Shown one piece after another: positions 2,790-54,532 of a stretch of DNA of 64,000 nt. The position numbers and the translations under genes were made by a program. Source of the stretch: Prorocentrum cordatum (lineage: Eukaryota); the NCBI GenBank assembly GCA_963575745.1, contig CAUYUJ010000259.1, positions 496,001 to 560,000 of the forward strand. Reading direction: 5' to 3'. Every line of letters starts with the position of its first letter. Within the stretch, counting starts at the first letter, position 1. A model generated the notes under the pieces. The model searched no databases and had not been told where the DNA came from. It saw nothing but the letters and a program-made list of their open reading frames with translations.

Positions 2790-2837
2790 GAGCGCATGGA
2801 GGAGGAGAAGAAGAAGAAGGCCGAGACGCAGGCGCAG
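2790..2837 (+). CDS. PRP38B: PRP38B-like exon (ERMEEEKKKKAETQAQ)
   Basis: ccag acceptor, GC3-rich codons, CAG|GC donor; phase 0 fits the next exon. Confidence 0.55.
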
Positions 2838-5800
2838 GCGGCCGTGCGAGACTCCCGCGCCGCCGGCCTGCCCGCGTTGGGCCTCCTCTTCCTCGTGCCG
2901 CTGGGCGACCACGGCCCCCGCGGGTTTTTGTCTCGTGCCTCCTCCTCCTCCTACTACTACTCCTCTTCCTCCTCTTCCTCCTCCTCTCTCCTCCACCCTC
3001 CTCCCTCCCTCCTCCTCCTCCTCCTCCTCCTCCTCCTCCTCCTCCTCCTCCTCCTCCTTCTCCTCCTCCTCCTCCTCCTCCTCCTCCTCCTCCTCCTCCC
3101 CCTCCTTCTCGGAACGCGCCTCCGGCATGCCAAGGGTCGAAGAAGAACAACAACGCCAGAAGTATAAATTTCTGGCGCTTCGCAAGCATTTCCTGGATCG
3201 CGGCGATCGAAGCGGGTACAGAAAAAGTGGGTAGAAAGACCGAACGCAGGTCCTGATCATTTCGAGCATGACTCGCTGTCGGCGTCGCCGCGGACGCTGC
3301 TCGTTCGAGACGGAAGGCCGCCCACCCAACAGCGGCCGCTGTCCGGTTTGAACAACATTTGTTGCTGGGCATTGTGCCCATCCGCGCCCATTCCGAGCAT
3401 CCAAGTTAGAACACGCCCGCGGCGTTCCAAGGATCGGAGGAGGGACCAAAACGCCATAAACGTAAACTTTTGGCGCTCCGCGCGGATTTCTTGGGCCTGC
3501 GTCGGCTCCCCCCCCTGGCGGCGCCTCCGGCGCCGCTCACGGCGCGCGGAGCGCGGAGCGCGCCAGGAAGGGGGACCCAGCGCAGATCTTCTCCTCCTCC
3601 TCCCTCCTCCTCCCTCCCCTCCCTCCTCCTCCTCCTCCTCCTTCCTCCTCCTCCTCCTCCTCCTCCTCCTCCCTCCTCCTCCTTCTCCTCCTACTCCACG
3701 TGCTCCTCCTCCTCCTCCTCCTCCTCCTCGCCGTCCTGCTCCTGTCCTCCTCTTGTCCTCCTCCACCTCCTCCTCAGTCCGCGCGGACCGTCAGAAGTTT
3801 ATGCCAATGTAGTTGTTGTCGTCCCTCCTAGACTCTCGGAGCGCCCGCGGCGTTACGAGGAGGCCGCGGGCCTTTCTGCCAAGGTCGAACGATCCACGCG
3901 GCGTCAGGAGCCTTCGCCGGGGTCGCCGCGACACTAGCCCGTCGTGCAGGAGGTTCCCGTCGCGCCGCCCGCGGCGGCGGACCCCGCGCGGGGGGGCTCA
4001 TCGGAGAGGCTCGCAGGCCCCGCCGCGCTCGGCGAACCAAGGATCCAAGGAGCTCGGCGAAGGAACTCGGTGTACAGACGCTCCAGCTCCATGAGAAGGG
4101 GGGGGTCGTCGATGCACTATGCGCGCCTTTGGCCGTCCAGGCGACGTGGGGGACACTGCCAGGCCCTCCCACCTCCTCTTCCTCCGTCTCCTTCTTCTCC
4201 TCCTCCTCCTCCTCCTCCTCCTCCTCCTTCCTCCTCCTCCTCCTCCACCTCCTCCCTCCTCCTCCTCCTCCTCCTCCTGCTCCTCCCTCCTCCTCCTCCT
4301 CCTCCTCCTCCTCCTCCTCCTCCTCCTCGCCCAGGTCTGGGGCGAACGCCGCCATAGGTCAGAATCGGCCAGCGCAGAACGATCTGACAGTAGAGAAGCC
4401 TTCGACCGTTCAGGGTTGGCCTGGCAGTTTGTGTGTCGAGGTCGAAGGATCCACGCCGCGTCTGAAGCCCTCGACGGGGTCGTCACGACACGAGCCCGTC
4501 GTACTAGTACGGAAGGCTCCTGTCGTGCCGCCCGCGGCGGCGGCCCCGCGCGGGGGCGCCCATTGGAGGGGCTCGAACGCCATGCCGCGCTCGGTCGTCC
4601 AAGGAGCGAAGGAGCTTGGCGACGGAACTCGTTGCATACAGTCAAAGCGCATAGTACGGATGAGCAAATGTCCAAGGGTACCCTTGCATCCATGCCCCTT
4701 CGGCCAATCCTTAGCAGCTTCCGCTGGCCAGCCCCGCTCGAAGAGCGTCGACATGGCATTCATGGGCTCTTTGGCATGCCTATCGCGCATCTTTATTCTA
4801 CGCGCTGGCTGCTGTAGACGGTCCTGGATCCCACGGCTCGAGAAGGCGGCAGCTCCCAGGCCGACCAGACGACGTGGTGTACTCTATACCTCGAGCCCCT
4901 CCCGCTTCGGGGCGCCGCCCGGAGAACGCGGCCGACGTCGAGGCAGCAGCGCTGTCGGGAAGCCTGGAACGCTCGAGGGGGGGAGGGGGCCCTCGTCGCC
5001 GCGGCGGGGACGCTCGGACCCGGGGGTGGGGGGGTCTGGGGACCAAATCTTTTGGAGCTGCCTCTGTCTCAGCTGGCCCTGCTCCGAGCCGCAGCTCCGG
5101 GGCCCTCCCAGGCGCCAGCGCATTTCCTGCTGCTGATCTTCGTGTGTGTGTGGTGCGCGTACACACACACACACTCCTCTCGAGGGACGAGGTGTTACAG
5201 CTCTGTGCTCGGAGCGCCCACTGTAATTATACACCTGCAGGTGGCTCCGCAAGCCTCTGCGAGGCATGTGCTAAGCCGCATGTTTCAACAGATGCCGGCC
5301 GTCGGACGCTCGAGTGATCGGTTTTTGAACCAGCCTTTCTCGACAGTTGTTGCTCACGTGAGCGCTTGAGCCCACGCGTCTGGCCGTCGCTGTGGACGTC
5401 TGAAGTCTGGGCGTGTCTGGGCTAAGCGCGCCCAGCCTCTGCCCTGCTCCTGCTGCTTCCCCAGTCCTGCTCCCGCTGCTCCTGCTGCTTCCCCCTTTGG
5501 CCTCCTCCTCCTCCTCCTCCTCCTCCGCCTCCTCCTCCTCCTCCTCCTCATGTTACTTTCCCCTTCGTCCCCTCCTCCTCCTCCTCCTCCTCCTCCTCCT
5601 CCTCTTTCTCTTATTATTTTCCCTTCTCCTCCTTCTCTCCCTCTTTCTCCTGCTGCTCCCCCCTTCGGCCCCTCCTTCGCGTCCTCCTCCCGCGCGTCGC
5701 CGCCGGGCGTGGGCAGCGTGCGCCTGGGACCCCGCACGCCGCCGGGCGTCGCTGGCGTCCGAGCGACCGGCCACGGCGCCGACGGCGCCAGCACTGCACA

Positions 5801-8800
5801 TGCGAAACACCGCTCTCGCTTTCTAGCCTCAAGTCGGGCCTGTCCCTCTACAGGAGGAATATCCCAAAATAGTCCAAACATGCTATGGGGAAAATGTTTT
5901 AAGTATGTTTGATTATGTTTTGATGTTTTTGACTATTTTAATTTTTCGTCGAAAATCCGCCTGTAGGGGGACATGCCCGACCTAATTCTAGCCTCAAGCG
6001 TCTGCGAACAGATTTCATGTTGCTGCGTACATCGACGCATTCGGGGTGGATCCGTTTAGAGATCACGCGGCCGCTGCGTTTGGCGCAGGAAAATGTGGGA
6101 GAACGGGCAGATCCGTCTACTGTATGTTGCTCTTCTAGAGCAGGTCCCATTTGGTACTCCAGGTATTTAGGCCTCCCAGATGGGGTCAGAGTGGATGGAG
6201 TCGAAGGATCGCGCCGCATCGCCGAAGCGTCGTCGATGTGGCTCGGTGCAGAGTTGGAGTTCTTCACGCCGGCGTCACGCCGATGCATCGCCGCCGACGT
6301 CGCCGACGCAACGCCGACGCATCGGCGATGCGGCGCGATCCTCCGACCCCACCTGCTCGGACCCCACTTTGGGAGGCCTGTGAGGGGTCAGCTGCCAGCC
6401 GTCGTGGCTGCTTCGAGGCGCTCTGCGGCGGCGGCGGCAGCGGCGGCCCCGTGGCCGTGCTGCACGCCTGGCCGCTCTCCGGAGCTCGCCTGCACTGCCG
6501 CGGGGGGGTGGAGGGGGCGGCGAAGGGGCGTGGGGGGGGGCGTCGGGGTGCGGATGCCGTGGCCGGGGCCGCGGGCTCCCACCTTCTCGAAGGATCCCGG
6601 GCAGACATGCGCTCGGGGATCCTCGGCGGCCTGGCGGCCAGAACGCAGGGCCGAGGCGCGGCTTCGGGCGCGCGGCGCGCACGGCGTGGCAGGCTCGGCA
6701 GGTGCTCCTCGGGGGGGGAGGGGGGCCCTTCTCATGCGGCACCGAGGAGCACGCCCCCCTTCCGACGGTCGCGCCACGACGTCGGGGAGGAAGGCAGGCA
6801 CCGCAGCGTCTCCCACCCCGTGTCCCCCCTGCCACTCCGTCGGCGCACCCACACCTCTTGGGCCCGGAGGCGCCGCCGCCTCGGAGAGCCTGCTCCTGCT
6901 CCCTGGCCCCTGCCCCCCTCCCTCCCGTCCCTCCTCCAGCCACCTGCACTGCCTGCCTGCCGCCGCTCCTGCTCCTGCTCCTGCTCCCCCTCCTGGCCCC
7001 TGCCCCCCTCCCTCCCGCCCCTCCTCAAGCCACTTGCACTGCCTCGCCGGGCCCTCCTGACCCCTCCCGCCGCCCCTGCGGCCTGCGAGCTCAGGCCAGA
7101 CGTCAGCACGCTGCCAGCTAAACTCCTTCTCTCTCCATCTCCCTCCTCCTCCTGCTCCTCCTCCTCCTCCTCCTCTTCCTCCCTCCTCGCCCCCCCTTCC
7201 CTACCCCCCTCCCCGGCGCACCTGGATGGCATAGCCACCAGGATGACCACGGGGATGGCCACCAGGATGGCCACCGCGTACCGGGTGCACCTGGCCAGGC
7301 CACCTCCGACCCCCAAGATCCGCGACAAGTTCCGACATCGCGAGGAATCACGACCAGAGCCCTGGACTCTATCGTTCTCCTCCGTGAGGGTCCCTTGGTC
7401 CGAGAAGAGGCACAGCCGCCCGTTGTGAAGGGATTGCGACGCCAGGATCTCAGCCCCGTGTTGAAAATCAGGGTCAACGATAGGGGGGCAGGCATAGGGG
7501 GGGGATGCATCGACCCCCAATCGCCCATTGATCGCCGATATGGGGCACGATAGCCCCGACCTGCCCAGGGAGCGTGCGGATCCACTGTTGGGGGCCTGTA
7601 TCGCCTTCGTGGCCATTCTGGCTCGAGGTCTTCGCCGCTCGAGTACCGGACACCGCAGACCTGTGCAGACGAACCGATCGGAGCATCTCGTCGTACCTCC
7701 TCCTCCTCCTCCTCCTCCTTCTCCTCCTCCTCCTCCTTCTCCCCCTCCTCCTCCTCCTCCTCCTCCTCCTCCTCCTCCTCCTCATTCTCCTCATCCTGGA
7801 TTGGCCATCCTAAGAATGGACCTGAACGAGGCGCTCGCCGTCTTCGCCGTGGGCGTGGCTTTGCGCGCCGCGCGGCCCTCCGGGACGGTGGTCGCGGCAG
7901 GGTCCGGCCTCCCACTGCTCCTCCGGGGCCCGTCGCTGGCGAAGGGGCTCAAGCAGACTGTCGACTCCTTGCTGTCGATGTCCAGATCAATTGAGCAGAC
8001 AGTCGACTTCTTGCTGTCGCTGTCCAGAGCAAAGAAGCAGACCGCGGGCCAGATCTCGAGGAAGAGAGGAAGGCATCAACAAACGTCTGGCGCTCCGAGC
8101 GGATTTCTTGGATGCGCGCTGGACCCCCTGGCGTTGCCTTCGGCGCCGCCCCTGGCGAGCTCGCGCCAGGGAGGGGTTCCCCAGCGCAGATCCAAGAAAT
8201 CAACGCGGAGCGCCAAACGTTTATGTATATGTTGTTTTTGTCTTCTAGGATCGACGGGTCGAATAAATCACGACGGGAGGTTTTCCACTATTTTCGGCCA
8301 CCCGGGGCCTTCTCCAGGCCTCGGGACCGTCAAAAGATGACTCAGAGTGAGAAGCCGGTCCCAGGGAAGGGGTCGAGACCTCTCGGGGTTGATGTCGTGC
8401 AAGAATCACGACGTCGGAGGTCTGGGTATGCGGATCCTGTGCCCTGCCTTGCGGGCCCCCTCGGGAGTGGTTTCTGTCTGAGACGGTGGGCCCCCCACCG
8501 GCACGTGTATCCGCCGGCATCCGATAAACGTGCTCTGGGCGCCGCGCGGACACGCGGCCAGGGGAGCAGCAGCACCAGGTCCTGGCCTCCCCGATCGCCG
8601 TCTCTGCGTTATCGGCGAGCTTGAGGGGTAACCACGTGGAGGACAGCTTTTCTCAATGGCACCTGTCATTGAGAGGGTTTGGCCACTGCATGGCATCGAA
8701 GGCGAAGAATCAAACAGCGGCAGGAAGAGCAGCATTTCACCTGCCCCCCGCCCCCTCCAGGCGGAGGCGAAGCGCTGCCACCTGCACGCGGGGAAGCCGA

Positions 8801-11609
8801 AGAACAGCTGCAAGTTCTGCAAGCGCTACCAGGACCTGGCGCGGGGCGGGGCGGAGCCGCGGGAGGCCAGCGTGACCCTCAAGGGCGGCCCAGCAGAGCC
8901 TCCTGGGCGAGGCTCGAGTCAGCTCAGGGGCGGAAGGCGGGCACCGTTGAGGGCGCCACAGGGCGATCCTTCTTCGGAAGGTCCCCCTTCCCCCCAAACC
9001 AGAGCGCCGCGGGTGCGGCTCATTGGCGCGCGAGGTTCGTCAGGAAGCCGCTTGTGCACTTGGACCCTCTCCACCTGCCAGGCGTGCTCCGCGAGCAAGA
9101 CACGCGTCCATATCCGCTGCAGCTTGGACCTACGGGCTCCCTTCCCCAGAAATCCGAGGCGCTCTGGGTATGCATAGACAGTGCGCCTCGGCCTCGCGGC
9201 GCGACTTCAAGAAATCCAAGACTCCAAGACGATATAAGTTTTCGCCAGTGTGCTCAGGATCAGGATCAGGATCAGGTTCGACCTTTTCGCCCCAGAGCGC
9301 TCTCAGAACGCGCCGGCTGGCCGCAGCGCCCGAGACGTCCTCCAGCATTAAAGAATCTCAGAGATGCCCGCTCTGTCCCGATACAATGCGGTTCGCGGTT
9401 TCGTCTTGACCTGGCTCCTCCTGCGCCTCCCGCGCCTGCCCCGAGGCCGGTGCTTTCTCCTCTGGCGCGCGTGGCGGTCTCTTCTCGGGCCATACCATAC
9501 GTCCCAGAAGCCCGACGCCCTGGGCTCGTTGTGTTTCTCCTGGTGAGGGGGGGGGGTCGTCCCTCCTGCGCCCCACGGCAGACGCCCCTGCCGCCGGAGC
9601 GCCCCTGCCGCCGGGGCTCCCCGGCCGGTGGCGCCAGAGGCCCGTGCCGCCCCAGCGGCAGGGGTGCGGGCCAGGGTCGGTCCCCAATGGGGGGGGGGCC
9701 GAGAGCCCATGCCGTCCAGGGCCGCTGCCCCGTGCACGCGCCGTCGGCGGGAAGAAGGAGGAGGAGGAGGAGGAGGAGGAGGAGGAGGAGGAGGAGTAGA
9801 ACGAGGAGGAGGAGGAGGAGGAGGAGGATGTAGAGAAGACGCTGAGGGGGGAGGGGGAGGCATCTATTAAGAGGAGTAGGGTAATTATAGCCAGGAGAAG
9901 AAGTATAGCAAAACTCACACAAAACTAGAGGTCGAGAGGTCGAGAGGTCGGCTGGGGGAGGGAGGTCGAGGTCGAGGTGGCCGTCGGCTCGAGGCAGAGG
10001 ATGGAGATCGAGGTGCAGGATCGAGGTCAAAGGGTGCCCTCCTGCTCTCCGTGCACGTGCCGTCGGAGCGAGGCAGAAGCCCTCCTGGTTGGGTCGAAGG
10101 AAACAAAGGTGCCATGAACATGAACTTTTGGCGCCCCGGGTCGCCTCTGGCGCGGCGCGCTCCGCGCGCCAGGGATGGCGGGGTCCAGCGCAGGTCCAAG
10201 GGATCATCGCGGAGCGCCAACAGTGTATGTTTCTGGCGTTGTTGTGTCTTCTATCGGATGTTCTTGTGCATCCTGGGGAGGGTGCCTTGGACGTTCTGAT
10301 CGTTTTGGCCGGCGGAGGGTCTCAGCCTGTTGCAGGAGGTTCCTCTGCCACAGGTCCGCCTGTAAGAGTGGCCCCTTCGCCGGAGCGACCTCTGGTGCGG
10401 GTCCGCTGGGGTCCCCCGGTCGCCGAGCGCGATGCGGTAGCAGCGTCTTGCGAGCTCATGTTTGGCCCCCCCCCGCGGCCCCCCAAAAGCCGCGCACAAG
10501 AGGTCACTCTCATCCAGGGTAACCCTTGCGTGTAGTCGAAGCTGGCCCTGAGGGCCGCGAAACAATAGGGCCGCAGAGGGCCCTCGCAGGGCCATTTGAG
10601 GCCCGATCTTTCGTGTCTGTGTGTGCTTTTCCGAGCAGCTGGTGATTGGGGGTGACTCAGATGCGGGATGAAAAGAACATTTTCCTGAAAGGAGCCCTTC
10701 AGGGCTCCTTCTGGAGCCAGCAGGAGCCCAAGAGGGTCCTTTGCGGCTCTGTTGCGTCAACCCCCCCCTGCAGGTCACCCCCCAACACGGCCCGCCCGAG
10801 AGGGGCGGCGGCGGCCGCTGGCTGGCGACGGGCGACTGGCCACCGACGGGCGACGGGAGCGTGCTTCTTTATTGCTTGGGCCATATCTCGCGTTGTGGCC
10901 CCCCCGGCCCCCTTCCCCCCCTGATAACGCAACGCTCCGGCCCCCAGGGCGCCCCTCGCACTGCCGCCGTGCGCATAGGGATCCGCATGTGATCCCGAAT
11001 AGGGATCCGCACAGGCGTCCGCACAGAGATCCGCATGTGGATCCGCGTGGGGATCGCACAAAGACCTCCTTCGGGATCTGCACAGGAATCCGCACTGTGA
11101 TTAGCAGGGATCCTTATAGACATCTGCATAAGGACCTCGGATCTCCAGAGGCATCCGCATAGGGATCTGCATATGGATCCGCATAGGGATCCAGATAGGG
11201 ATCCGCATGGCAATTCGCATAGGCATCCGCATAGGGATCCGCATAGGGTTGCGCATTGGGATCCCCAGAGGGGTCCTCATAGGGATCCGCAAAGAGATCC
11301 GCATAGGGGCGGTGGTCGCGGTCAAGTTGCGGCGCTCCCAGGCACTCGTGGTGCTCGTGGGAGAGAGAGAGAGAGAGAGAGAGAGAAATAGGAGGAGAAG
11401 AACGACGGCGACAACGACGACGACGAAGACGACGACGAGGATAGAGGAGGGAGGTAAGGAGCATACATCTTACACGCCACGTGGAGGCAACGACGCCTTC
11501 GCAGGCATGTGCTCGCCACAATTCCTCATTGCTCTTCGTTGTCGGTCGTCGTCGTCGTCGTTGTGGACGTTGTTGTTGTTGCTGTTGCTGTTGTTGTTGT
11601 TGTTGCTGT

Positions 11610-11693
<84 letters not shown>

Positions 11694-11730
11694 GGTTGTG
11701 GTTGTGGTTGTGGTTGTTGTTGTTGTTGTT

Positions 11731-11765
<35 letters not shown>

Positions 11766-14700
11766 TGCCGCTCTTCGTTGTCGGTCGTTGTCGTCGTCGG
11801 CGTCGGCATCGTCGTTTCTCGTCGTCGTCAATATCTTCGTCGTCGTTGTCGTCGGTCGTCGTCGCTCGTGGTCGCCCGTCGTTGTTCAGCACCTTCGAAT
11901 GCTTTCGAGAGCCCCTGGAGGCCTTCGGATGACCTCCGCAAGGGCTCTGGAGGCTTCCAGAGGCCTCAGGAGGCCCCCAGAGGCCTCGGGAAACCTCCAG
12001 AGACCTCAGGACGCGTCGCTCGTCGTCGTCGCAGTCGTCGTCCTCGTCCTCGTTGCTCGTCGTCGTCGTCGTCGTCTTCATGGGCGCTCGTCGTCGTCGC
12101 GGCCGTCGTCGTTGTCGTCGTCACTTGTCGTTGTCGTCGCAGTCGTCGTCGCAGTCGTCGTCCTCGTCCTCGTCGCTCGTCATCGTCGTCGTCGCCGTTG
12201 TCGTCGTCTTCGTGGTCGCTCGTCGTCGTCGCGGCCGTCGTCGTTGTCGTCGTCACTTGTCGTTGTCGTCGTTGTCGTCGCAGTCGCTCGTCGTCGTCTT
12301 CGTCGTCATCGTCGTCGTCGTGGTCGCTCGTCGTCGTCATCGTCGTCATCGTCGTCGTCGTTGTCGTCGTCGTCGTCGCTTGTTGTCGTCGCCGTGCCCC
12401 CGGACGCTGTGGTGGCGCCGGAATCGCACGGCGGGGGGGGGGGGCGTTACGTTATGCCGCAATGCCCCCCCCCCCCCCCTGGCCCGCCCCCATAAGGCCA
12501 GTTCTCGCCGCGAATAAAGAAACGCTCTCCAGGCGTTGCCCTCAGGACCCGTGTCCGCCATGCTGAGACCTTGCGGATTCGCTATGGGGTCTTGTTGTCG
12601 ATTTCTCGGCGACGCATGGCTCATTCGCAGGGGAGGATCAGGAGCCCATCCCGCTACCGCTCCCTCGCTCCCCCTTTGGGAGCCTTCTGGGCGACCCTCG
12701 TCGCGATGGCTGGATTCGCCTCGGAATTATGGTCTGAACGTCTTCCTCCTTCTCCTGGCCTCGGCTGCCTCGTCAACGCGCTCCTGCACCTGCTCTGCTC
12801 CGCCTCCTCCTCCCCTGCTCCGCTCCGACCATCCGATTCCTCGAAACCACCCCTCGGTAACACCCCATCGATCCCTCGACTCCTCAGGAACACCTCCCGA
12901 TTCTCGGCCATCCGATTTCTCGACTATCCCATTTGATCCTCGACCATTTCATTCCCTCCTTGAGGTCGACGGCACCCCGCAGCCTCGGTCCGTCGCCCAG
13001 GAGGGACCGGAAGCACCCTGCCGCACGGACTCGGCACGACCGGAGTGGGTGCGGAGAGAGAGGAGGGCGAGTTGAGACAAGCTGGCCCTCGTCGCCACGG
13101 CCGGACGCAGCTCGGGAAATTGGTGCGCTGGGGCCCTGGGAAGGGGTCCAGGCGCCGATGTGAGCTGCCGTGGTCTCGACTCGCCTTCCTCCGACAGCAG
13201 CAGCTTCTGACCGTTTTGATCGGGCCTGATGCCATGCCTCGCCTGCCCAAGCAGCGGTTGCTTCCGATTGCGAGCAGCATTTGCCGACGGGCCTCGTACC
13301 CACACACAGCCAACCTTGATAGTAAGGAGGGGCAACTTACCAAGCTGAAGCCTGCGTCCTTCCCTTTCGGTCCATCATTTGGCCCGCGTTCGCTGGCCGC
13401 GCCCCGCCCCAAAAAGGGTCGACACGGCCCCCCCAAGGCCTTGGCATCCTGACCGCGCATCCGTACCATGCGGTTTGCCTGTGCCAGCTGCGGGGGTGCC
13501 CGTCGGTCCTCGACCCCTGATCTGGGCCCCACGAGTGCGTGCCCTGCAGATCGGGTGTTGCTGGAAGTACCCCCTGGCCCAGGGGTATCCCAGGATTCCC
13601 TGGGTGGCTCAGACGGCCTCCAGGGCACCAATCACGAGGCCCAGAGGGCCTCAGGGTCTCAAAAATGGAGCGAAAAGCTGGGGGCTCCTTGGGCCAGGGG
13701 CACTTCTAGCAACACCCTAGCAGAGTGCGCTGTCTGGAGGAGACGCCTCCCCTCCCGAACACACGGGCAGCTCATGTGGAAGGTATCTCCCGCTGGGTGC
13801 CCCTGGGGCCGCCCGTGGTCTCTTGTTCGCCAGGGGGGAAGCTCGGAATGGGAGGATCAATCCGTTAAAGAGCTCGGAGGAGGAACGTGTACCCACACCC
13901 CTACCCTTCGTTTGTTTTCCCCTTTTCGGGTTTCCTGGACGGCCCTCGTCGCCACCGTTGGATTCGCTTCGAAATCCTGGTTAGAACGCACCACGGGAGA
14001 GGTGCGAGCAGTAGCGGTATCGGTACCTTTGATTTCCCTAAGAGCGTTTTGAGCGCTCTCAGAGCGCTCCAGAAAGCTCTAAGAAGGCCGGGGGCGCCCG
14101 AGACGTCCTCCAGAGCCGCGCGGGACCTTAGAGCTTCCCGAGGTATCCTCACCCGATGCTATCCTCGTCCTGGCTTCGTCTGAGAGAAGTGGGGTCCCCC
14201 AGGGCAGCGGGCCCAGAGGTTTTTGTTTCTCCTTGCCCTCGGGCTCTCGCGTGGCCCTCCACAGAGTCCCTGGGCCGGTCCGAGGACGGCGCGCGAGCAG
14301 GATCACGAGTGGTCCCGGGGGACGGCGTGGGGCCGAAGACCCGCTTCCCTCAGGTTGGCAGTCCCCAAACGTGGTGGTGACAGCACCCGGCGGTGAGTCT
14401 CGGGCGATTTGGTGTCACCACTCGGCTTGGGGTTTCGTGTGCGCTTGTTTCGAGGACGTCCCAAACGCTGGTGGGTCCAGGAGCCACAAAAAACTTGGCG
14501 GTGTCCCGTGTTCCAAAACACCCGGCGGTTACTTTGGGGGGATTCCAGGGCACCACCTGGTATCTCACCACCTGGTTTAGGGTCTCCCAGTCAGCGCCCG
14601 TTCCCCCTCAGTGCAGAGTGGCCCCTCCGGCAGGAGTTCGTGGACAGCCAGAAGAAGGAGGAGGACGGGCCGCGTCTTGCCCTGGGCCCTGCCCTGCTCT

Positions 14701-39300: not shown

Positions 39301-42300
39301 ACTTTCGAGGGCCGCCGGGGGGTCCAGCGGAGTGACGTCCCGCTCAGATTCAGAGAAGACCTCGCCATCCTTTGGGGGGGGGCTGCGACCCCGGCCTCAG
39401 ACTTCCTGGCCCGCGGGCCGCCCTCGGACCTGGCAGCTCGCCTTCGAGCATTTGGCTCCCGCACGGAAGAGTGCGGGATGGAGAAGGAGGAGGAGGAGGA
39501 GGAGGAGGAGGACGAGCAGGAGGAGGAGGACGAGGAGGAGGAGGAGAGGGAAGGAGGAATGGCAGGAAGGGAGCGGAGTTGCTGGCGGGCGAGCTAGGCT
39601 TCGCTCGCCTTTTGCACTGCAGCGCGGCTAGATCCTTTCGGGCGCCGCGGCGACGTGGCACAGGCAGCGCTGCATCTTCAGCGCATCATCGACAACATCA
39701 ACTCCTCGGACTCCTCCCGTCACCTTCGTCGTCGTCCTCTGGCCCTTGCCACCTTCCCTCTGCCGCTGCCGCGCTGACGATTCGGCCCCTCACGCGTCCT
39801 TCGTCTGCCCTGCGTTCCCGGCTCATGCCCTCCTCCAGCCCTGGGCCTTGGCTCCTCGTCCTTCTGCTGTTGTCCCGTGAACCGTGCCACGCGAGCGCAG
39901 CCCATGTGGCTTGCACCAAGAACGGCGCCGGCACTCTCATCGTTCTGGCAAGTTTGGACCAAGTCCTACTTGTCACTTGAGGCAAATGGGTTGGGTACGT
40001 CGCAGGGTCATTGTTGTTTGGGGGTTGGGTGTGGGGGGGGTGGGGCAGTTCCAGGGCGGGGGAGGGTGGGATTCTGCACAAGCTGCGCGTGCACAGAGGA
40101 CGCTCTGTCAGAGGAGGAGGTGGGCGACAAGGTTGGCGGAGGCAGAGCATGGAGGGGCACGCCATGGTGAAGAAGAGAGGAGGGGGAGGAGGAGGAGGAG
40201 GAGGAGGAGGAGGAGGAGGAGGCTGAGAAGGAAGAGGACGAGGAGGACGAGGAGGACGAGGAGGATGAGGAGGACGTTGAAAAGGAGGAGGAGGACAGGT
40301 AGTAGGAGGAGGAGGAGAAGGAGGAGGAGGAGGAGGACGAGAAGGACGAGGAGGACGAGGAGGAGGACGACGAGGAGGAGGAGGAGGAGGAGGAGGAGGA
40401 CGAGGAGGAGGACGAGGAGAGGGCGGAGGACTAGGTGGAGGAGGAGGGGGAGGATGAGGGGGAGGAGGACGTGCAGGGCAGGGTCCTGGAGAGCAGGCGG
40501 TTCGATTGCGGCATCGAGCTGTCCAGAAACGGCCGTCGCAGCTGCAGCTGCCTGGCAGCACCGCCACATCGTCGATGCACGGGATTCGCGCGGAGCCCCG
40601 AAAGTTTTTATTTAGGCTGTTGGTTGCTCCTCTTGGCAGAGGCCCGAGAGTCATCTCAAAAAAAACGCCTAAGTTTGCAGAGTTCCAGGCGGATTTCTTG
40701 GATCTGTGCTTGGCCCCGTCTGCAGCGCCGCCCATGGCGCGCTCCGAGAGCCAGGGAGGGGGGGTCCGGCGCCGATCCAAGAAGTCCGCGCAGAGCCCCA
40801 AAAGTGATGTTTACTCATTTTTTTTCCACTAGCAGAGGCCCGAGGGGCAGCACCCTCAGCCCACGGGGCACATATCCCTTGCGTCAGCCTTTTGCAGACA
40901 CGCTGCGATAGGCCGCGCGGTGCGCGTTGCACCACACCTCGTGCAAGCAGTATACAAATGTGTGGGGTAGAGGTTTCAGTTGAGCCGCCGCAGATTTTCA
41001 GGCGCCTCACTGCCTCGCCTTGAACAGAACCAGCAGCAATCAAGGACGCTGATGGGCGCCCACATTCCCAGGCCCGTGCTCCCATGCGCTGACGCCGAAC
41101 TGCTGCCAAGGTCGCTCGCTCTCTCGCTCCTCATCCATCCCCTCCTCCCCCGCCTCCCCCACCCTCTCCTGGACAAGATGGGCAAAGAGCGGCGGAGCCG
41201 CTTCGGGCCTGGCCTCCACCACCGTACAGGGAAGAAGGAGTGGTCCTTGAGACCTGAGGTTTCTCACTCACGTGAGTGAGCGCACTGCCTAATTCTATGA
41301 ACTTTTTGCGCTCCGCGCAGATTTCTTGGATGTGCGCTGCGCCGCCAGGGGCAACCCAGCGCGGATCCATGAAACCCGCGCGGAGCGCCAAGAGCTTCCC
41401 TTGATGGCGTTTCTCGCTCCTCTCCTACTCGTGCACCTCTGCAGCTGCCTGGTCCGGCGTCCGCAGGCGGGGCACAGAAGCCTGCCGCCCCTCCGCTCCC
41501 GTGGCTCCCACCCACGGTGCACGCGCCCCCGCCCGCGAGGGTCGGCCTGCACCCGGAGGAGTTCCTGCCGTGGCTCAGCCCGCGCCTCATCCGGGGCGGC
41601 CGCCCCGCGGCGCGCGCGCGCCCGGCGGCTCCCGCGCGGGCTGGGCGCCCGGTGCGGCGCGGCGCGGCGGGGGCCGCCCTTCAGGAGGGAAAAACACACA
41701 GACACAATTAATCGTCGATCCCACGGAAAATATGGGAAAATATGGGAAGTGGTGGGAAAGACAGAAAGCCAGAAAATATGTGAAAATATGGGGAATATTT
41801 TTACTTGTGTGTATTTATTTGTGTGTCCCAGGGCCCCTTGAGCCCTGTCATCAGAAGCCTGGAGCTCGATTCACGAGCGGCGACCCCATCGTCATCAGTA
41901 TCGTTCAACGGATCCCCATCCCCATCCCCTGCGAGACCCCCACCAAATGACCACCCCATTTGGGGATACGCCCCGCGAAACTCGAAGGGAACGGCCTATA
42001 TCCCCATCTAGGGGGGTAAATCGGCCAGCAGGGCCCAGGCCACGCCGCTGGGGATGGGGATCGGTTAAACGGTGCTCACGTCAGAGCCCCGAATCATCAG
42101 GGGTAGTTCGGGTCAGGGCTAACTCGGATTCGTTTTTCAGGGATCCGAGCCCGAGTTGCCCCGGGGCCCGAGCTACCCCGGATAATTCGGGCGTCCAGCG
42201 TCCTAAATCATCAGTGGTAATTCGGTCCAGGGCTGACTCGGGTTCGTATTCTGGGAATCCCAGCCCGAGTTACCCCGGGCCCGACTTACCCCGGATATGG

Positions 42301-45300: not shown

Positions 45301-48300
45301 GGGCCCATTCCTCGATACATGGGCGCCTCCCGGCGCCGGGAGGCGCCGGGAAAATCAGCTACGCGAGCTGATTCTCAAACCCACCCTTTGCTATCCCCCC
45401 CTTTCGCCCGACCCGAGAAGAGGTCCTGAGGAAGCGGGCCCCGGGTCGAAGAGCAAAGAACGGCAAAGGTCAGGCGATCACAATCAGGAGCGGAAGAAGG
45501 ACGCACACGCACACGAGTCCACGCTGGTTTCGAGAGTTCGCATTGCGCGAATGTTCGTATCACGCGGCAGGTCTCGCGGGTCAGCGGGCCGTGTTCATGT
45601 ACGTAGCTGGGCGCGTGTGCATTTCGTGGGCTCCCCACACAAACATGATCAAGGAGGCGTCGACGGGCCCGCACGCGGCGGCACCGGCCGCATTTTGGGG
45701 AGGGCACCTCCCCCGATCCATGGACTTGGCGACCGCGCGCCACAACCATATGGATCGCGCCCCCCGAAAGGGCATGAGTTTCCGGAGGTCCGCGCGGAGT
45801 GCTCGGAGGAGGAGGAGGAGGGAGGAGGGAGGAGGGAGGAGGGAGGAGGAGGAGGAGGGAGGAGGGAGGAGGAGGAGGAGGAGGGAGGAGGGAGGAGGGA
45901 GGAGGGAGGAGGCGGAGGAGGAGGAGGAGGAGGGCCCCCCATGGCGGTGCCTTCAGCGCCGCCCCCGCCGCGCTCTCCGCGCGCTCGCAGGGGGCTCCAG
46001 CGCCGCGGAGTCTACGTTTGTGCTGCTGTCTCTCCCCCCCGCTAAGGATAAAAAATCAGGAGGGGAAAAAACACACAGACACAATTAATCCGCGATTCCC
46101 AGAACATATGGGAACATATGGGAAGTGGGGGGAAAGACAAAAACCTAGAAAATATTGGAAAATATGGGGGATAGGTTTATTTGTGTGTATTTATTTGTGT
46201 GTCCCAGTTCCCCTTCAAAAAAGCGATCCCACGTCGAGTGGGCATTATTTGCGGCCTCTCTGATTTGCGGGGTGCCGAGAGATGTGGCTCCAGTGATTTC
46301 GTGACGCTCCAGTACTTTTACGATGGGTCCCGACATGTTTTTTATCACTTCTGGACGCACGGTAGGGCTCCATCCCTCAGGGTTCCATTTTTGAGCCGGC
46401 GCCGCCCAGATATATTGAGATGCGCGTCGCCCCCAACGGGGCAAGTAGCGAGCCTTCGGACATCCTGTAGTAGATGTTTCTTGGCAGAAGCTTTCTGGCC
46501 GGACCGTTCGGAAAGCGATGTGTTAGAGGATGGTCCTACCATTTGTGCGGGTCGGGCGCACGCCTCCGAGGAGGGCGCCTAGTACTGGCACGTCCTTCTG
46601 CGTCTCACCTCAGGGACCTATCTTCGGGCGGCCGATGATAGCCCGCTCGGCGGACTCGAGTCTATGCCCAGTACGGCACGGTCCAGTCCGAGCTCACGGC
46701 GCGGGCTGTCGCTGTGCACGGGCCTTCTGTCGGCTGGCTTGGTTCGTCGTGTGGGCGGATGACACGGGGCACGCGAGGACGAGAGGGGGAAAAGGGGACG
46801 GGGGAGAAGGAGGAAACGGAGGAGGGAGAGGAGGAGGAGGAGGAGGAGGAGGAGGAGGAGGAGGAGGAGGAGGAGAGAGCGGATCTAGGTCTCCCAGATG
46901 GGGTCCGAGTAGACGGGGTCCGCGTACACGGGGTCCGAGTAGACGGGGTCCGAGCATCGGTCGTATCGCCGAAACATAGGCGATGCGTCTCGATGCGGAA
47001 GTTGAATTTCTCCACGCCGACGTCGCCGATGCATCGACGACGTCGTCGGAACATCGCCGATGCATCTGCGACATCCTCTGACCCCACCTACTCGGACCTA
47101 ATCTGGAAGGCCTCTAGCGGAGGTGATGGTGGTTTTGTTTTGTCTTGGCTCGTGTTTGCTCGCCCCGCTGTGTTCCCGCTGGCGTTGTCCGCCGCGCGCG
47201 GCCTCGACTGACGCTGCGGGCGAGTGTGGAGCTTCTGCAAGAAGAGAAGGGTAGAAGGGTAAAGGGAGCGGGGGGAAAGGATAAAGCAAAGGAGGAAGGG
47301 GAGGAGGAGAAGGGTGGACATGGACGCGAATGTAGAACGGAGGAGGAGGCGGAACGCTGTGGCTTCAGCTCAGGTCGGGGTATCGTTTGTCGGGTCGGTG
47401 GGGATCGCCGATCTGATCGCGCGCGTGACGCAGAGATCGGCCGAAACCTCGAGGCAAGTTGGTCCTTGGTGAGCACCCGTGTGAGAGGATGACGAGACGA
47501 GCGGCGTCTTCCTACTAGCAGCGGCAGCAGGTGCTGGCGCACGATGAGAACTGTGGCGAGGCTGTACCGGCATGGGCACCAGGGAGAGAAAGAAAGAGAA
47601 GAAGAGAGAGCGAGAGAATGACAACAACCACACAAGAGAGAGAGAGAGCGAGACAGAAAGAGAGAGAGAGAGAGAGGGATGGTGAGACATATTCGAGGAT
47701 CCCAGCTTGAACGAGCAAGCGCTTGCCCTGCACCGCCTGCTCGCAAACCCTGCTGCGCCAAGGTGAGTACATGCTCGACGAGGAGGAGTTCTACGTGTCC
47801 AAGGATCTTGGCCGCGCCAGTGTCTCTCCCGTCCGCCCTCCCTTCGCTTGATCTTCCGGAGTCTCTTGTGGTAGAGTGCTTGTAAGTTCGGGACGAAGGG
47901 CACATTGAATAATCGTAAGTTTTCGGAGGTCCGCGCGGATCTCTTGGATCCGCGCTGGGATCCCCCTTGGCGGCGCCTCCAGTCCCGCCCTGTCGTGTTT
48001 CCCATTGGATGTTTCAGATTTGTCCCTCGCCGACTCCGCGGCGTTCCTGGCCCGCCTCTTAGGTGTGTGTATGCGTATTCTTTGGGCAGCGCACGCGTGC
48101 CAGGTCAGCTGTCTGTGTTGGCGCCTGCCCCTTGTGCGTTCGAGCCTTCCATGTCTTCTCTCACTTTTACTTTTAGGCACTTCTCTGTCTTCGTGCTGCG
48201 GCACCAGGGACCTGAATCCAGGTTCTTCGTGCTGTCCACTGTCCGCAAGCCGCCCTGCAGAGTTCACCGAGCACGCCCAGAAGCCGTTCAGACCACAACT

Positions 48301-51300: not shown

Positions 51301-53603
51301 ATCCCGCCTGACCCGCTGCCCAATCTGGCGCACCAGCCCCCCAGTTGGGCTCGAGCCTCCTCAGCCCTTCCCGCGAAGACCCCCCCAGCAGTGTTTCTTG
51401 GAGAGGAGGAGGAGGAGGAGGAGGAGGAGGAGGAGGAGGAGGAGGAGGAGAAGGAGCAGTTGACTCCTGGCCTCCCCGCGTGCGCCCCCTCGCCCCCCCC
51501 GCGGGAGGGCGAGGAGGAGAGCGCCGCGGGAGCGGGGGGAGGCAGGGGCCGGCAGGCGGAGGCTGGAGCACCGGCGAAGTGGGGCGGGCGCACGGGTCAG
51601 GATCGGGTATAGCCAGGGCCCCGGGTAAGGGGACTTGGGTTAGTGGTAGGGCCCTGGGGCCCCTCAATTGGCCAGGTTCGCTAAACCAGGTTTGCCGTAG
51701 CTGGTGTTTTTCGGGTGACGGCAGTTCCGGTCAGTGGAAATGGGACGGGGAGGCGCCCCCAGTACAAATCACTAAGCCAGGTTCCACTAAACCCAGTTCT
51801 GCCAACGCCCGACAGGAGGGGACAGAAGCACGCAAGTGAGTGCCCACAAATAACAGGAGTCCCCATCTTGTCCCCTACTTTCTGGGCCTCCGTCTTCCCC
51901 CCCCCACCTGCCATGTTTTCCTGTAGTTCCTGGGGAGTCGAGGATGACTTGTGTCAGTGTGTTTTTTTTCCCCTGACCTGTGCGTTGGCCCCGCACACGT
52001 CAGGAGAGGAAGAAACACACAGACACAAGTCATCCTCGACCCCCCAGGAAAATATGGGAAAACATGGGAGGTGGGGGGGAAGGCAGAAACCCACCAAATT
52101 CGGCAAGACATGGGGACTCCTGTTATTTGCGTGTATTTATTTGTGTGTCCCAGGGCCCCTTCAGCACAGGGGGGAGCCATCGGAGGCTGGTAGACCTCCT
52201 GCCCTGACACGTCGATGGACAAGCGAGTTGGTCTTTTTCGGTCCGCGAGGGGGCGTCGCGGCCGTCGTTTTCTGCGGGTCCAGGTCCGTCGGCTTCGGAC
52301 CGAGGCCGTTTTCACGAGAGGGTGGTTTTTGTGAAGTGAGGTGTGTCCACCGCCGAAGCTGCGGGGCTGTTTTGAGGGGGGCGGCCTCACCCTGGAAGAG
52401 GGAGGGTGGGGCCTCGGAGAAGGCAGGGGGCATTCCTGTGGGGCTCAGCCTCAAGTCGGGCACGTCCCTCTGCAGCAGGAGTCTTAAAATAGTAAAATAA
52501 TTGTCTGTTTCTGAATGTTTTCGACCATGTTTTGCGTATTTTTGATTGTTCTTCCAAAATCCGTTTGTAGGGGGACATGGCCGACCTAAGCTTAGCCTGA
52601 GGGCTTCTACGGATGCCGCTTAGAAGCCTTCCTAGAAGCCCCCCCCCCTCCAAGAAGGACGCCCATGTCGAGAGCCCCCCCCCTGTGCGCGCCGCCAAGC
52701 GACCTCGGCGACTCGCCCCGGACCGAAGGACAACGACTCGCAGCGCCTGACGATCAGCGAGTACATCGAGAGCCTGCTCAGACAAGACACGTATGCGCAG
52801 GGGCAGGGCCGCTCCGACGTCCCCTACGCCCCGCTTCCTCCCATCCTCCTCTCATTCCCGCCTCCCTTCCTCGTCTCCTTCTCCTCCTGCTCATCCCCCC
52901 TCCTATCCCTCCCCGTCATCATCCCCCGTCCTCCTCCTCCTCCTCCTCCTCCTTATCTTCCTCCTCCTCCTCCTCCTCCTCCTCTTCTAGGCCCTGGCAG
53001 TGTCGGAGAGAGGGAGGCTGATATGCAATATGTTGCCCTTTTCCGCTCCGATCACTGGGCGTCTCCCCCAGAGGTCTCTTCGGGGGCACAATGCGTACAG
53101 GTCCGCGTCATCTCTCCCTCCTCTCACAGACACGGCCAGGTGTTCCCCCAGAGAGCTCTTTGGGAGGGGGTTCCGCAGGTATCCTGGAGGCTCAAATATA
53201 GGAGATAACAGCAGACGACCACGTCGACGAGGGCGGCGAGGAAGGGGAGAGGGCGATGTCGAGAGCGAGAGCGAGGACGACGAGGACCCATTGCCTCGCA
53301 GGCTCCCTACTATTGTTCCTGCTTTCTCTGCCCCGCTTCTCACCTGCTGCGCTCTCCTAGGTCACCTGGACTCGTCTCTCGGCTGCTCGCACCTCGCCTC
53401 GATCAGCCCGTCAGCGCTTCGCCGCACAGGCGCTCCAGCTCTGCTGCCTGAGCCGGCGCAGCGCAGAAACATAACGAGGAGGACGGAGACGACCGCGCGT
53501 CCTCGCCGAGTCGCCCGCACGCCCGGTGCCGGCCCCCGGGCCCCCGCCGGCTTTCTCCACGATCATCCCTCGGATCCCCGCGGGGAAGAAGCGCCAGATC
53601 GAG
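2790..53603 (+). CDS. PRP38B: PRP38-family (PRPF38B-like) pre-mRNA splicing factor; 12 exons in window, partial at both ends
   Basis: Exons join in frame: ERMEEEKKKKAETQAQ|IRDKFRHRE|AEAKRCHLHAGKPKNSCKFCKRYQ|EFVDSQKKEE|EAHKSSASGG-S|RKGGSGYRFMGALEIANPKTFGFTPLLQSHIVESQHYKQ|VMMMETFEELVEEARTYIEGIKPYQQ|NSNTVPSAMMVVLYRMFTHGIDGRQLQILVDMEGSPYVRCLGFLFIR|VGLHPEEFLPWL-S|EYMLDEEEFYVSK|DNDSQRLTISEYIESLLRQDTY|FSTIIPRIPAGKKRQIE. SPYVRCLGFLFIR, LDEEE, TISEY and FSTIIPRIP follow the PRP38B motif order (SPYIRALGFMYIR, LDDEE, TIGEM, FSTLFPRIP), recalled from memory. Confidence 0.88.
5829..5985. mobile_element. Family B MITE (~30-bp TIRs, AT-rich core, 8-bp TSD)
   Basis: tcaagtcgggcctgtccctctacaggagga / tccgcctgtagggggacatgcccgacctaa; TSD ttctagcc on both sides. 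Confidence 0.85.
6166..6382. mobile_element. Family E MITE (aggcctcccagatggggtc TIR, gcatcg/cgatgc core)
   Basis: Long TIRs shared with 44736-44991 and 46884-47116. Confidence 0.78.
7318..7344 (+). CDS. PRP38B: PRP38B-like exon (IRDKFRHRE)
   Basis: cccaag acceptor, GAG|GA donor, phase 0; only 27 nt so less certain. Confidence 0.5.
8087..8216. repeat. Fold-back dispersed repeat (cgctccgcgcggatttcttggat...atccaagaaatccgcgcggagcg), about 12 copies
   Basis: Related copies near 1060, 3175, 3470, 10130, 16885, 17070, 25220, 35175, 40580-40800, 41305, 47925, 59600. Confidence 0.7.
8761..8832 (+). CDS. PRP38B: PRP38B-like exon (AEAKRCHLHAGKPKNSCKFCKRYQ), Cys/His motif
   Basis: C-rich tract plus ccag acceptor; CAG|GA donor; strong GC3 codon bias. 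Confidence 0.75.
10975..11308. repeat. 12-bp minisatellite (gatccgcatagg)n
   Basis: Directly visible diverged units. Confidence 0.85.
11540..12392. repeat. (GTT)n/(GTC)n triplet tract
   Basis: Directly visible. Confidence 0.95.
14361..14585. mobile_element. MITE-like element; second copy ~42300-42495
   Basis: ccccaaacgtggtggtga / tcaccacctggttt TIRs; collinear cores. Confidence 0.65.
14634..14663 (+). CDS. PRP38B: PRP38B-like exon (EFVDSQKKEE)
   Basis: gcag acceptor, GAG|GA donor, phase 0. Confidence 0.6.
15470..15641. mobile_element. MITE-like element; inverted second copy ~17141-17311
   Basis: cggggatggacagaacccc / ggggttctgtccacccccg TIRs. Confidence 0.65.
19155..19186 (+). CDS. PRP38B: PRP38B-like exon (EAHKSSASGG + AG)
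   Basis: cccag acceptor, AG|GA donor in phase 2, matching the phase needed at 35886. Confidence 0.6.
20613..22085 (+). mobile_element. Nested element with asymmetric IRs (acctaacagcga / tcgctgttaggt), ending in AATT
   Basis: Absent from the sister copy (empty site gtgtttttcaggcg). Perfect 12-bp IR at 20613-24 and 22056-67, the latter 18 nt from the end. Carries a 73-bp array and a GAG tract. Confidence 0.72.
20734..21231. repeat. Tandem array of ~7 units of 73 bp
   Basis: Unit starts at 20734, 20806, 20879, 20952, 21025, 21098, 21171 (caac...cacttcgtgctcttcgagttcccagaactccattcccgggccacatt...). Confidence 0.92.
23359..24595 (+). mobile_element. Helentron/Helitron2-like non-autonomous element, copy 2
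   Basis: 5' tcccaccagccc (23361-72) pairs with subterminal gggctggtgggga (24563-75), followed by hairpin tacgc-gaa-gcgta (24576-88) and ..gaatt; no TSD seen. Confidence 0.75.
23767..24385 (+). repeat. Compound minisatellite: (ccccaagagg)n then (cccgaacgactcacacca + 5-12 nt)n; mirrored at 22130-22727
   Basis: Units directly visible in both element copies. Confidence 0.92.
25890..35160. repeat. Diverged long-period tandem array (~1.3-1.7 kb units) containing a (GAC)n tract at 27490-28110
   Basis: Anchor cccgcccacccgca..ttggtttgc..aaccc.tgcggcggcgattgcgatga recurs at ~25910, 27415, 28858, 29437, 30730, 32396, 33783, mostly followed by the same gcgcgaccgacgcggccgcggtggcg block. Confidence 0.75.
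35886..36003 (+). CDS. PRP38B: PRP38B-like exon (RKGGSGYRFMGALEIANPKTFGFTPLLQSHIVESQHYKQ), start of PRP38 domain
   Basis: Resembles the PRP38 N-terminal segment; CAG|GC donor; the acceptor could instead be a nearby in-phase AG (exon start 35889 or 35910). Confidence 0.8.
36585..36662 (+). CDS. PRP38B: PRP38B-like exon (VMMMETFEELVEEARTYIEGIKPYQQ)
   Basis: cgag acceptor, CAG|GA donor; matches the PRP38B 'TYHEVVDEIY...EPW' segment. Confidence 0.85.
37011..37150 (+). CDS. PRP38B: PRP38B-like exon (NSNTVPSAMMVVLYRMF...SPYVRCLGFLFIR)
   Basis: Most conserved PRP38 motif; ccgcag acceptor; AG|GA donor in phase 2. Confidence 0.92.
37913..38054. mobile_element. Family B MITE
   Basis: Both ends present; TSD ctttacaa / ctttccta. 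Confidence 0.72.
38812..39390. repeat. Tandem array of ~100-bp units (about 5.5 copies)
   Basis: gcgatctgcgaacctgtcgcc...gtccagcggagtgacgtccc.cgcagattcaga..agacctcgccatccctgggg repeated. Confidence 0.88.
41540..41577 (+). CDS. PRP38B: PRP38B-like exon (VGLHPEEFLPWL)
   Basis: Completes the AGG codon; A|GC donor in phase 1 fits the next exon (A+GT = Ser). Confidence 0.75.
41681..41840 (+). mobile_element. Family A element copy
   Basis: Same termini; TSD cgccct / agccct. Confidence 0.8.
41896..42077. mobile_element. Family G MITE-like element; second copy at ~195-554 with family A inserted in its right TIR
   Basis: agtatcgttcaacggatccccatcccc / ggggatggggatcggttaaacggtgct TIRs; core collinear with 200-382. 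Confidence 0.7.
43765..44408. repeat. (GAG)n polypurine tract, one of ~25 CCT/GAG tracts (others e.g. 667-1000, 21245-21912, 48505-49131)
   Basis: Directly visible. Confidence 0.95.
44635..45021 (+). mobile_element. Diverged family A copy split by a family E MITE
   Basis: TSD gagatg (44629-34 / 45022-27). Confidence 0.72.
44736..44991. mobile_element. Family E MITE, 5-bp TSD
   Basis: TSD tatgt (44731-35 / 44992-96). Confidence 0.82.
46056..46216 (+). mobile_element. Family A element copy
   Basis: Same termini; TSD aaaaaa. Confidence 0.8.
46884..47116. mobile_element. Family E MITE, 5-bp TSD
   Basis: TSD gcgga (46879-83 / 47117-21). Confidence 0.82.
47763..47803 (+). CDS. PRP38B: PRP38B-like exon (EYMLDEEEFYVSK)
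   Basis: ccaag acceptor, AAG|GA donor; matches the 'FLDDEE' motif. Confidence 0.8.
51826..52162. mobile_element. Two family A copies head-to-head (minus ~51826-51976, plus 52000-52162)
   Basis: Reverse-complement and forward copies 23 bp apart. Confidence 0.75.
52451..52589. mobile_element. Family B MITE
   Basis: TIRs; TSD gctcagcc / gcttagcc. Confidence 0.8.
52729..52794 (+). CDS. PRP38B: PRP38B-like exon (DNDSQRLTISEYIESLLRQDTY); 3' boundary uncertain
   Basis: gaag acceptor; aligns to the 'TIGEMLRSFLTKLEW' segment. Confidence 0.8.
53553..53603 (+). CDS. PRP38B: PRP38B-like exon (FSTIIPRIPAGKKRQIE); no adjacent AG acceptor
   Basis: Matches the 'FSTLFPRIP' motif; GAG|GC donor. Confidence 0.78.
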
Positions 53604-54532
53604 GCGCCATCCTCGCACGGGTGGGGGGGGGGGAGAGCACGAGGGGGGGGGAAGGGGGGGAGACGCGGGGTGGAGGAGGGGAGGGAGCGAGGGCAGGGCA
53701 GGAGGGCGGCGGGAGGCGGAGGGAGGGGGAGAAGGAGCACGAGGACGAGGGGGAGGGGGAGGAGGAGGAGGAGGCGGAGGAGGAGGAGGGAGGAGTAGAG
53801 GAGGAGGAGGAGGAGGAGAGGAGGGAGGAGGAGGAGGAGGAGGGGGAGGAGGAGGAGAGAGGCAGAAAGGAGGACAGGCAAGAAGTGGAGGGGTCCCGCT
53901 TGGATGGAGACTTCTATGAATTCGTATTGTGGCTGAGGCCGGGTAGCGTTGAGATCTGTTGTGGGGGAGGGAGGGAGGGGGTTAGGAAGTTGGTGAGGCG
54001 GAGGGAAAGAAGGAATTTTGAGGAGTGCGGAGGATGACGCGGGAGGCATGGAGGAATGATGAGGAAATGGGGGGGTCCTCCCCGCCGCTCTCCTCTTGTC
54101 TCTCCCTCCCTCCCCCCCTCTGGCCATTTCTCCTTTAGATTCTGTCCGCCGCCGCACTTGCTGGGGCCAGGCAAATGGGTCGGGTGGCGAAGGGGGTGAG
54201 GGGCACGGCATCTGCGGCGTGCAGTTGGTTGCGGCCCCGCCGCCAGGGCTCCGGGCTCCTGGAGGCGTTGGGGAAACCAGCTGCTCGACGCGATTCTCGA
54301 CCCCATCATTTTCTGTCCTACCATTTTTCAGGAGGGAAAAAAACATACAGACACAATGAATGGTCAACTCCCAGGAAAATATGGGAACAAAAACGCAGAA
54401 AATAAGAGAACATATTGGGAATCCTGTTATTTGTGTCACACCTGCGGGGTCACACCTGCTCAGTGTACTTACCATTTGCTCTTGCTCTTTTCTTCTCCCC
54501 GACGTCATCCCATACAGCTCGACATTGCATCG

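Follow-up and report, generated by a model that had tools for sequence, protein, structure and literature searches.

A probable PRP38-family splicing-factor gene of Prorocentrum cordatum with GC and GA intron donors and one putative intron lacking a terminal AG

Identity of the gene

The DNA described here is a 64,000-nt window of the dinoflagellate Prorocentrum cordatum (contig CAUYUJ010000259.1 of assembly GCA_963575745.1, positions 496,001 to 560,000 of the forward strand), and all coordinates below are those of the window. Positions 2790–53603 (+) carry ten short exons which, judged from sequence comparisons, very probably make up the first (5′) half of an ordinary nuclear gene encoding a PRP38-family (PRPF38B-like) protein, of the kind to be expected in a GC-rich dinoflagellate with long introns, where GC and GA donors are standard. 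A preliminary description of the same DNA had already recognized a PRP38-family splicing-factor gene here and had noted that the list of open reading frames (ORFs) misses it as a unit. Both points are borne out; open stretches occur in each of the six reading frames of the window, and ORF lists are uninformative.

The family assignment does not depend on the joined gene, as exon 6 alone (the peptide of 37026–37148) matches the Pfam family PRP38 (PF03371; E 2.7e-5, 24.5 bits) above its curated gathering cut-off of 22.4 bits, covering positions 60–100 of the 173 in the profile; five other exon peptides sent singly to Pfam, which are too short to score alone, gave no match. A protein search with exon 6 found P0001, a 456-aa protein of the Logan source that is 80% identical to it and has a PF03371 domain at aa 79–237 (100.9 bits, profile positions 6–170 of 173). 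Exons 4–10 are colinear with P0001 aa 68–239 and so enclose the whole domain, with the frame open throughout. A search with P0001 returned 159 proteins at E <= 1e-5 from dinoflagellates and other alveolates (names taken from the best 120 of the 159), and among the matches listed the source names of these relatives are 'Pre-mRNA-splicing factor 38' or '38B'. Nearest to the window exons among the matches listed are P0002 and its cluster mate P0121, at 97.5% identity compared with 78% for P0001. These two make up the P0002 cluster by themselves, match exons 6–10 by tblastn, and carry the same two differences from the window in 81 residues. Neither a 'shorter' protein search (21 proteins, 43–63% identity) nor a search of metagenome contigs with P0001 (13 loci, best-segment identity 39–52%) gave anything nearer than P0002 and P0121.

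Joined together, the ten exons encode a stop-free peptide of 223 aa, or 238 aa with a longer form of exon 4 that is discussed below. Its identity to P0001 aa 6–239 is 78%; it agrees with P0002 aa 1–81 at 79 of 81 residues in an ungapped alignment and scores 308 bits (short exon 4) or 339 bits (long exon 4) on a family hidden Markov model (HMM) of 542 positions built from 121 homologues.

The predicted protein shares a common layout with the dinoflagellate factor-38 proteins (UniRef A0A7S4R0D4 of Alexandrium monilatum, here P0004, together with P0001, P0002 and P0121), namely a Lys/Glu-rich N-terminus, a C-H-L-H...C-K-F-C-K motif, a linker, and then the PRP38 domain. It differs from these relatives in that only the first 223–238 residues lie in the window, and its linker is 12–15 residues shorter than that of P0001 if exon 4 begins at 35893. 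PF03371 also includes the N-terminal domain of human PRPF38A (PDB 4rza), and P0001 aa 83–248 align to residues 19–181 of 4rza_A, although this match is marginal (E 8.7e-4, 21.8 bits). We note that the motif ahead of the domain, C-H-L-H-x-G-K-P-K-x-x-C-K-F-C-K-R-Y in exon 2, is conserved across the dinoflagellate PRP38 relatives (HMM 'kChLH.kkpkkkCkfCkky'); it falls outside all Pfam families, and its Cys/His pattern resembles that of a small zinc knuckle.

Exon organization

Exon positions were set by homology, using tblastn and the family HMM, and junctions were placed such that the joined frame reproduces the homologues ungapped. By tblastn, P0001 aa 2–239 are placed colinearly on the forward strand at about 2787, 8758, 14631, 35902, 36582, 37008, 41538, 47765, 52726 and 53553, and the family HMM recovers the same colinear exons, from HMM position 87 to 314 of 542. 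The exons are 30–140 nt each and total 675 nt, or 720 nt with the longer exon 4. The figure of about 740 nt given in the preliminary description is approached (747 nt) once two extra exons at 7318–7344 and 19142–19186 are included, but the supported model has only 675–720 nt. Among the sequencing runs listed for the segment 35850–37200, 20 of 24 contain a fraction of 0.18–0.19 of its sampled words, and four are recorded as RNA; this fraction is estimated to be close to the exonic share of the segment, but it carries no weight as evidence for the exons.

All ten exons are on the forward strand; in what follows a slash marks the exon boundary. Exon 1 (2790–2837) is predicted to begin at 2790, with the first ATG, at 2796, as its presumptive start codon (MEEEKKKKAETQAQ); it matches P0001 aa 2–22 by tblastn and ends at the donor CAG/GC at 2838. 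Exon 2 (8761–8832; AEAKRCHLHAGKPKNSCKFCKRYQ) lies between the acceptor CAG/G and the donor CAG/GA at 8833 and is 92% identical to P0001 aa 18–43 (HMM 36.3 bits). Its junction with exon 3, KRYQ/EFVD, is contiguous with P0001. Exon 3 (14634–14663; EFVDSQKKEE) has the acceptor CAG/G and the donor GAG/GA at 14664, and P0001 aa 42–58 match at 14631–14681. The PRP38 domain begins in exon 4 (35893–36003; acceptor AAG/G, donor CAG/GC at 36004), which is 79% identical to P0001 aa 68–101 (HMM 41.2 bits), and continues through exon 5 (36585–36662; VMMMETFEELVEEARTYIEGIKPYQQ; acceptor GAG/G, donor CAG/GA at 36663), corresponding to P0001 aa 101–129 (HMM 16.2 bits). Exon 6 (37011–37150), which holds the PF03371 match, has the acceptor CAG/A and a phase 2 donor, CAG/GA at 37151, is 83% identical to P0001, and scores 71.3 bits on the HMM.

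Exon 7 (41540–41577; (R)VGLHPEEFLPWL(S)) has the acceptor GAG/G and the donor TCA/GC at 41578, which lacks an exonic AG, and is placed by P0001 and P0002 matches at 41538–41591. Exon 8 (47763–47803; (S)EYMLDEEEFYVSK), with the acceptor AAG/G and the donor AAG/GA at 47804, is 100% identical to P0002 aa 30–43. Exon 9 (52729–52794; DNDSQRLTISEYIESLLRQDTY; acceptor AAG/G) is 96% identical to P0002 aa 42–64, and its donor, TAT/GC at 52795, is the second without an exonic AG. The PRP38 domain ends in exon 10 (53553–53603; FSTIIPRIPAGKKRQIE), which is 100% identical to P0001 aa 223–239 and ends at the donor GAG/GC at 53604.

Codon usage provides a strong coding signal that is independent of homology. 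Codons ending in G or C make up 209 of the 223 in the joined frame, and their proportion is at least 86% in each confirmed exon (e.g. 14/14, 24/24 and 10/10 in exons 1–3, 19/22 in exon 9, and 16/17 in exon 10); the introns are 61–70% G+C. Such extreme third-codon G+C is a handy test for separating true micro-exons from look-alikes in the P. cordatum genome.

Proposed additional exons

The preliminary description included two further exons with GA donors, ending at 7344 and 19186. A longer exon 4 is a separate alternative. Neither of the two exons has a counterpart in P0001, in the 121 homologues (tblastn, E < 1e-3), or by the family HMM (E < 5). Splice signals are cheap in this region, 2790–53605 having 836 occurrences of AGGA, 246 of AGGC and 142 of AGGT, and intron 1 contains 63 stop-free, in-frame look-alike 'exons' with the same flanks.

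The candidate at 7318–7344 (+; IRDKFRHRE) is not supported and is one of the 63 look-alikes in intron 1. P0001 aligns ungapped across the exon 1/2 junction, and with the exon added the alignment has 12 gaps instead of 3 and scores lower; its G/C-ending codons (7/9) are below every confirmed exon, its coding/non-coding likelihood ratio is 0.46, and it is unlikely to be an exon. The candidate at 19127–19186, or from 19142 (+; SWRRETLAPGGAQVERQRRE), lies in the poorly conserved linker and has a C-rich tract ahead of its AG. Models that include it score 337–338 bits on the family HMM, compared with 339 for the model with the long exon 4, its G/C-ending codons (15/20) are again below every confirmed exon, and its likelihood ratio is 0.05; we lean against it. 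For exon 4, the alternative start at 35848 (+; AAG/A) gives 339 bits on the family HMM, compared with 308 for the start at 35893. The added segment (35848–35892) has 10/15 G/C-ending codons, also below every confirmed exon, and a likelihood ratio of 0.007. Third-codon G+C thus argues against both extra exons and the long exon 4. A set of 2,356 pseudo-exons drawn from intron 3 was discarded as a null, being mostly G/A-rich tandem repeats with a median third-codon G+C (GC3) of 0.96 and useless as a control.

Of the seven GA donors put forward, five are supported, that at 19187 is undecided, and that at 7345 is unlikely. Because the two exons behind it lack support, the GA majority put forward earlier (7 GA versus 4–5 GC) is not upheld, and the count without them is 5 GA and 5 GC.

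Intron boundaries and donor usage

All 12 donor dinucleotides listed in the preliminary description are present, with GA at 7345, 8833, 14664, 19187, 36663, 37151 and 47804, and GC at 2838, 36004, 41578, 52795 and 53604. Ten of them sit exactly where colinear protein homology (P0001, P0002, P0121) ends; in order these anchored donors are GC, GA, GA, GC, GA, GA, GC, GA, GC and GC, that is 5 GA, 5 GC and 0 GT, with the donor at 53604 anchored on one side only and the next exon not in the window. The claim that the gene has no GT donors therefore stands for all ten, and sliding the junctions by up to 4 nt, where donor and acceptor share bases, converts none of the nine introns to GT..AG. An exonic AG precedes eight of the ten donors, the exceptions being those of exons 7 and 9, and positions +3 to +6 show no common sequence among the ten. 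At the other end, the acceptor is AG in eight of nine introns and AGG in 6–7 of the nine, the exception being intron 9, which ends in CT. The shortest of the nine introns has 348 nt and the longest about 21,200 nt (mean 5,566, median 4,925).

Donors of this type are reported to have been first described in dinoflagellates by Shoguchi et al. in 2013 and Lin et al. in 2015. Table 2 of PMC10666404 gives donor shares for P. cordatum of 24.7% GT, 51.4% GC and 23.8% GA, together with 79.7% AGG acceptors, a mean intron length of 4,709 nt and a genome G+C of 59.7%; the same table puts GT at 23.6–36.6% in four further core dinoflagellates, namely Polarella and three members of the Symbiodiniaceae. A review agrees in general terms that GT is a minority donor in dinoflagellates (PMC11453091), and the same general picture is found in PMC12584245 and PMC5177918. 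Under the P. cordatum shares, the probability of no GT in ten donors is 0.059 and that of at least 5 GA in ten is 0.065; the corresponding value for the earlier count, at least 7 GA in 12, is 0.011 but rests on unsupported exons. Zero GT in ten donors is unremarkable because the published GT share is already a minority, such that about 6% of genes of this kind are expected to have none, and the absence of GT would reflect sampling rather than some property of this gene.

In other respects too the gene resembles the spliceosomal GC-AG and GA-AG introns of core dinoflagellates, with donors of G followed by C or A, AG acceptors (8/9) mostly followed by G, long introns, short exons, and a high genome G+C. 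The G+C content (54–69% in the window), the intron lengths and the acceptor pattern all fit the P. cordatum figures. The gene departs from the core dinoflagellate introns in the segment 52795–53552, which has no AG acceptor; apart from this intron, the intron ends of the gene are already described for dinoflagellates.

Intron 9

Intron 9 (52795–53552, +) is 758 nt long and reads GC...CT, with the end ...GCCGGCT, or TG...GC if slid by one base. Its donor had been listed as only a possible GC donor; homology supports the donor, but the intron that it opens has no AG acceptor. Exon 9 ends GAC ACG TAT and exon 10 begins TTC TCC, where the homologues read QDTY/FSTII ungapped, and the 41-residue stretch around the Y/F junction is equally long in 119 of the 121 homologues, the other two differing by one residue. 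Since this length-invariant stretch has to be kept, intron 9 must end exactly before TTC. The nearest upstream AG (53509–53510) keeps the frame, and its use would lengthen the protein by 14 Pro/Ala-rich residues.

Introner-type introns have inverted repeats of 8–20 nt and direct repeats of 3–5 nt within 30 nt of their ends, following the definition quoted in PMC10666404. Intron 9 has no terminal inverted repeat, the duplex formed by its two 40-nt ends is no better than in shuffled sequences (z +0.85), and the flanking direct repeat is 1 nt only; it is thus unlike introner-type introns. The other eight introns also lack end pairing (z -0.65 to +2.7 relative to shuffles). The non-canonical introns and introners of Amoebophrya A25 and A120, reported by Farhat et al. 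in 2021, are, as presented in PMC10666404 and PMC11453091, like intron 9 in having no canonical ends and yet requiring exact removal, but inverted and direct end repeats of the type presented there are absent from intron 9.

Downstream region and other features of the window

A reverse-transcriptase ORF lies downstream of exon 10 at 57427–58551 (+; Pfam RVT_1, E 4.6e-27, 95.5 bits), and the nearby long ORFs at 55826–56878 and 56882–57745 (+) have no Pfam match. A retroelement thus lies on the same strand as the gene, 3′ of exon 10 and probably inside the next intron. The RVT_1 match is the only one at E <= 1e-4 among the 265 ORFs of the window that were scanned (at least 110 aa, entropy > 3.55, with low-complexity ORFs dropped beforehand). 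Five marginal matches in the first half of the window (E <= 1e-3) were taken as chance, four of them being below their own cut-offs and the fifth, on the minus strand inside intron 3, matching 'Somatostatin' over 13 residues at 21.5 bits (cut-off 20.3). Rfam and transfer RNA (tRNA) scans of the window found nothing.

The window also contains several repeats. A dispersed repeat of about 165 nt is present in five forward-strand copies (382–546, 2595–2744, 41680–41839, 46056–46218 and 52000–52165) that are pairwise 78–87% alike and have CACACA/TGTGTG-rich ends; they match neither tRNAs nor Rfam families. About 45 nt separate the end of one copy from exon 1, and another begins about 100 nt past the exon 7 donor. 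Intron 3 contains a 1-kb inverted duplication (22124–23127 and 23361–24365, 96% identical over 1,012 columns), the arms of which are built of tandem units of about 28 nt, as well as a tandem array at 20734–21231, which repeats every 73 nt or so in copies that are 84–92% alike.

Discussion

The colinear homology, the open joined frame and the codon usage together argue for an ordinary PRP38-family gene, but five points weigh on the other side. The use of the junctions in RNA is predicted from protein homology, intron 9 has no AG acceptor, and no protein identical to the window exons was found among the protein-search matches listed. GA donors, at 5 of 10, are about twice as frequent as in the published tally, although not significantly so. 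Lastly, the C-terminal 217 residues of P0001 (aa 240–456) were not found by tblastn or with HMM positions > 314 up to base 64000, which leaves room for a truncated or dead copy. As to the donors, we regard it as very improbable that this splicing-factor gene is a special case, avoiding GT in favour of GA as a result of donor recognition through exonic AG/G. The absence of GT, the five GA donors, the exonic AG ahead of eight donors and the lack of anything in common at +3 to +6 are all in keeping with such a rule, but the published genome-wide shares already account for the donor counts, the two exons that made the GA majority are unsupported, and the donors at 41578 and 52795 have no exonic AG. 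The argument of the preliminary description from GA prevalence to donor recognition through exonic AG/G is thus not sustained; it is not new, and a single gene is too little to put it to the test.

Intron 9 admits several explanations. It is possible, if somewhat short of probable, that it is a true AG-less intron, removed exactly despite its CT end and with no need of a 3′ AG, in a gene that is otherwise ordinary; this is compatible with an ordinary PRP38-family gene and is an addition to it. The Y/F junction is fixed by homology, with 17/17 and 22/23 identical residues on its two sides, the surrounding stretch is constant in length, and exons 9 and 10 keep their G/C-ending codons, but the intron has none of the described introner marks. 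We are more doubtful about the further proposal that intron 9 is cut exactly in vivo without AG, terminal hairpin or flanking repeat, which would amount to AG-independent removal unlike that of the described transposon-like non-canonical introns. The intron could instead end at the in-frame AG at 53509–53510, which would make it a regular GC-AG intron, 716 nt long, and place an insert of 14 Pro/Ala-rich residues (SPARPVPAPGPPPA) between Y and F. This we think unlikely; the insert is stop-free and 12 of its 14 codons end in G or C, which carries little weight at a local G+C of 90%, but no homologue has such an insert, and it lowers the family HMM score from 339 to 319 bits. The missing AG may also be an assembly error. 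A low probability, like that of the use of the upstream AG, attaches to this copy being a defective or decaying paralogue that has lost the acceptor of intron 9 and perhaps its 3′ half, for example cut off by the downstream retroelement, in which case the transcripts behind P0002 and P0121 would come from another copy. The non-AG acceptor would fit such a copy, as would the lack of any exon for P0001 aa 240–456 in the 10.4 kb downstream of 53603, where the same-strand reverse-transcriptase ORF lies, and the two differences in 81 residues from P0002 and P0121. However, all ten exons are open and rich in G/C-ending codons, eight of nine introns have intact signals, and introns longer than 10 kb are normal here, one already being about 21 kb.

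For dinoflagellate genomics, this is a hand annotation of a gene that is invisible to ORF lists, and a further case of GT-based gene finders failing on dinoflagellate DNA. As the protein-search matches listed include no identical public protein, the public gene model here may be missing or wrong. Wider interest is limited to the AG-less intron 9, and otherwise the gene matters little. If RNA shows that intron 9 is removed exactly, it would widen the set of intron ends accepted by the dinoflagellate splicing machinery and, if true, would mean that a free-living dinoflagellate can remove an intron independently of AG, here within a splicing-factor gene.

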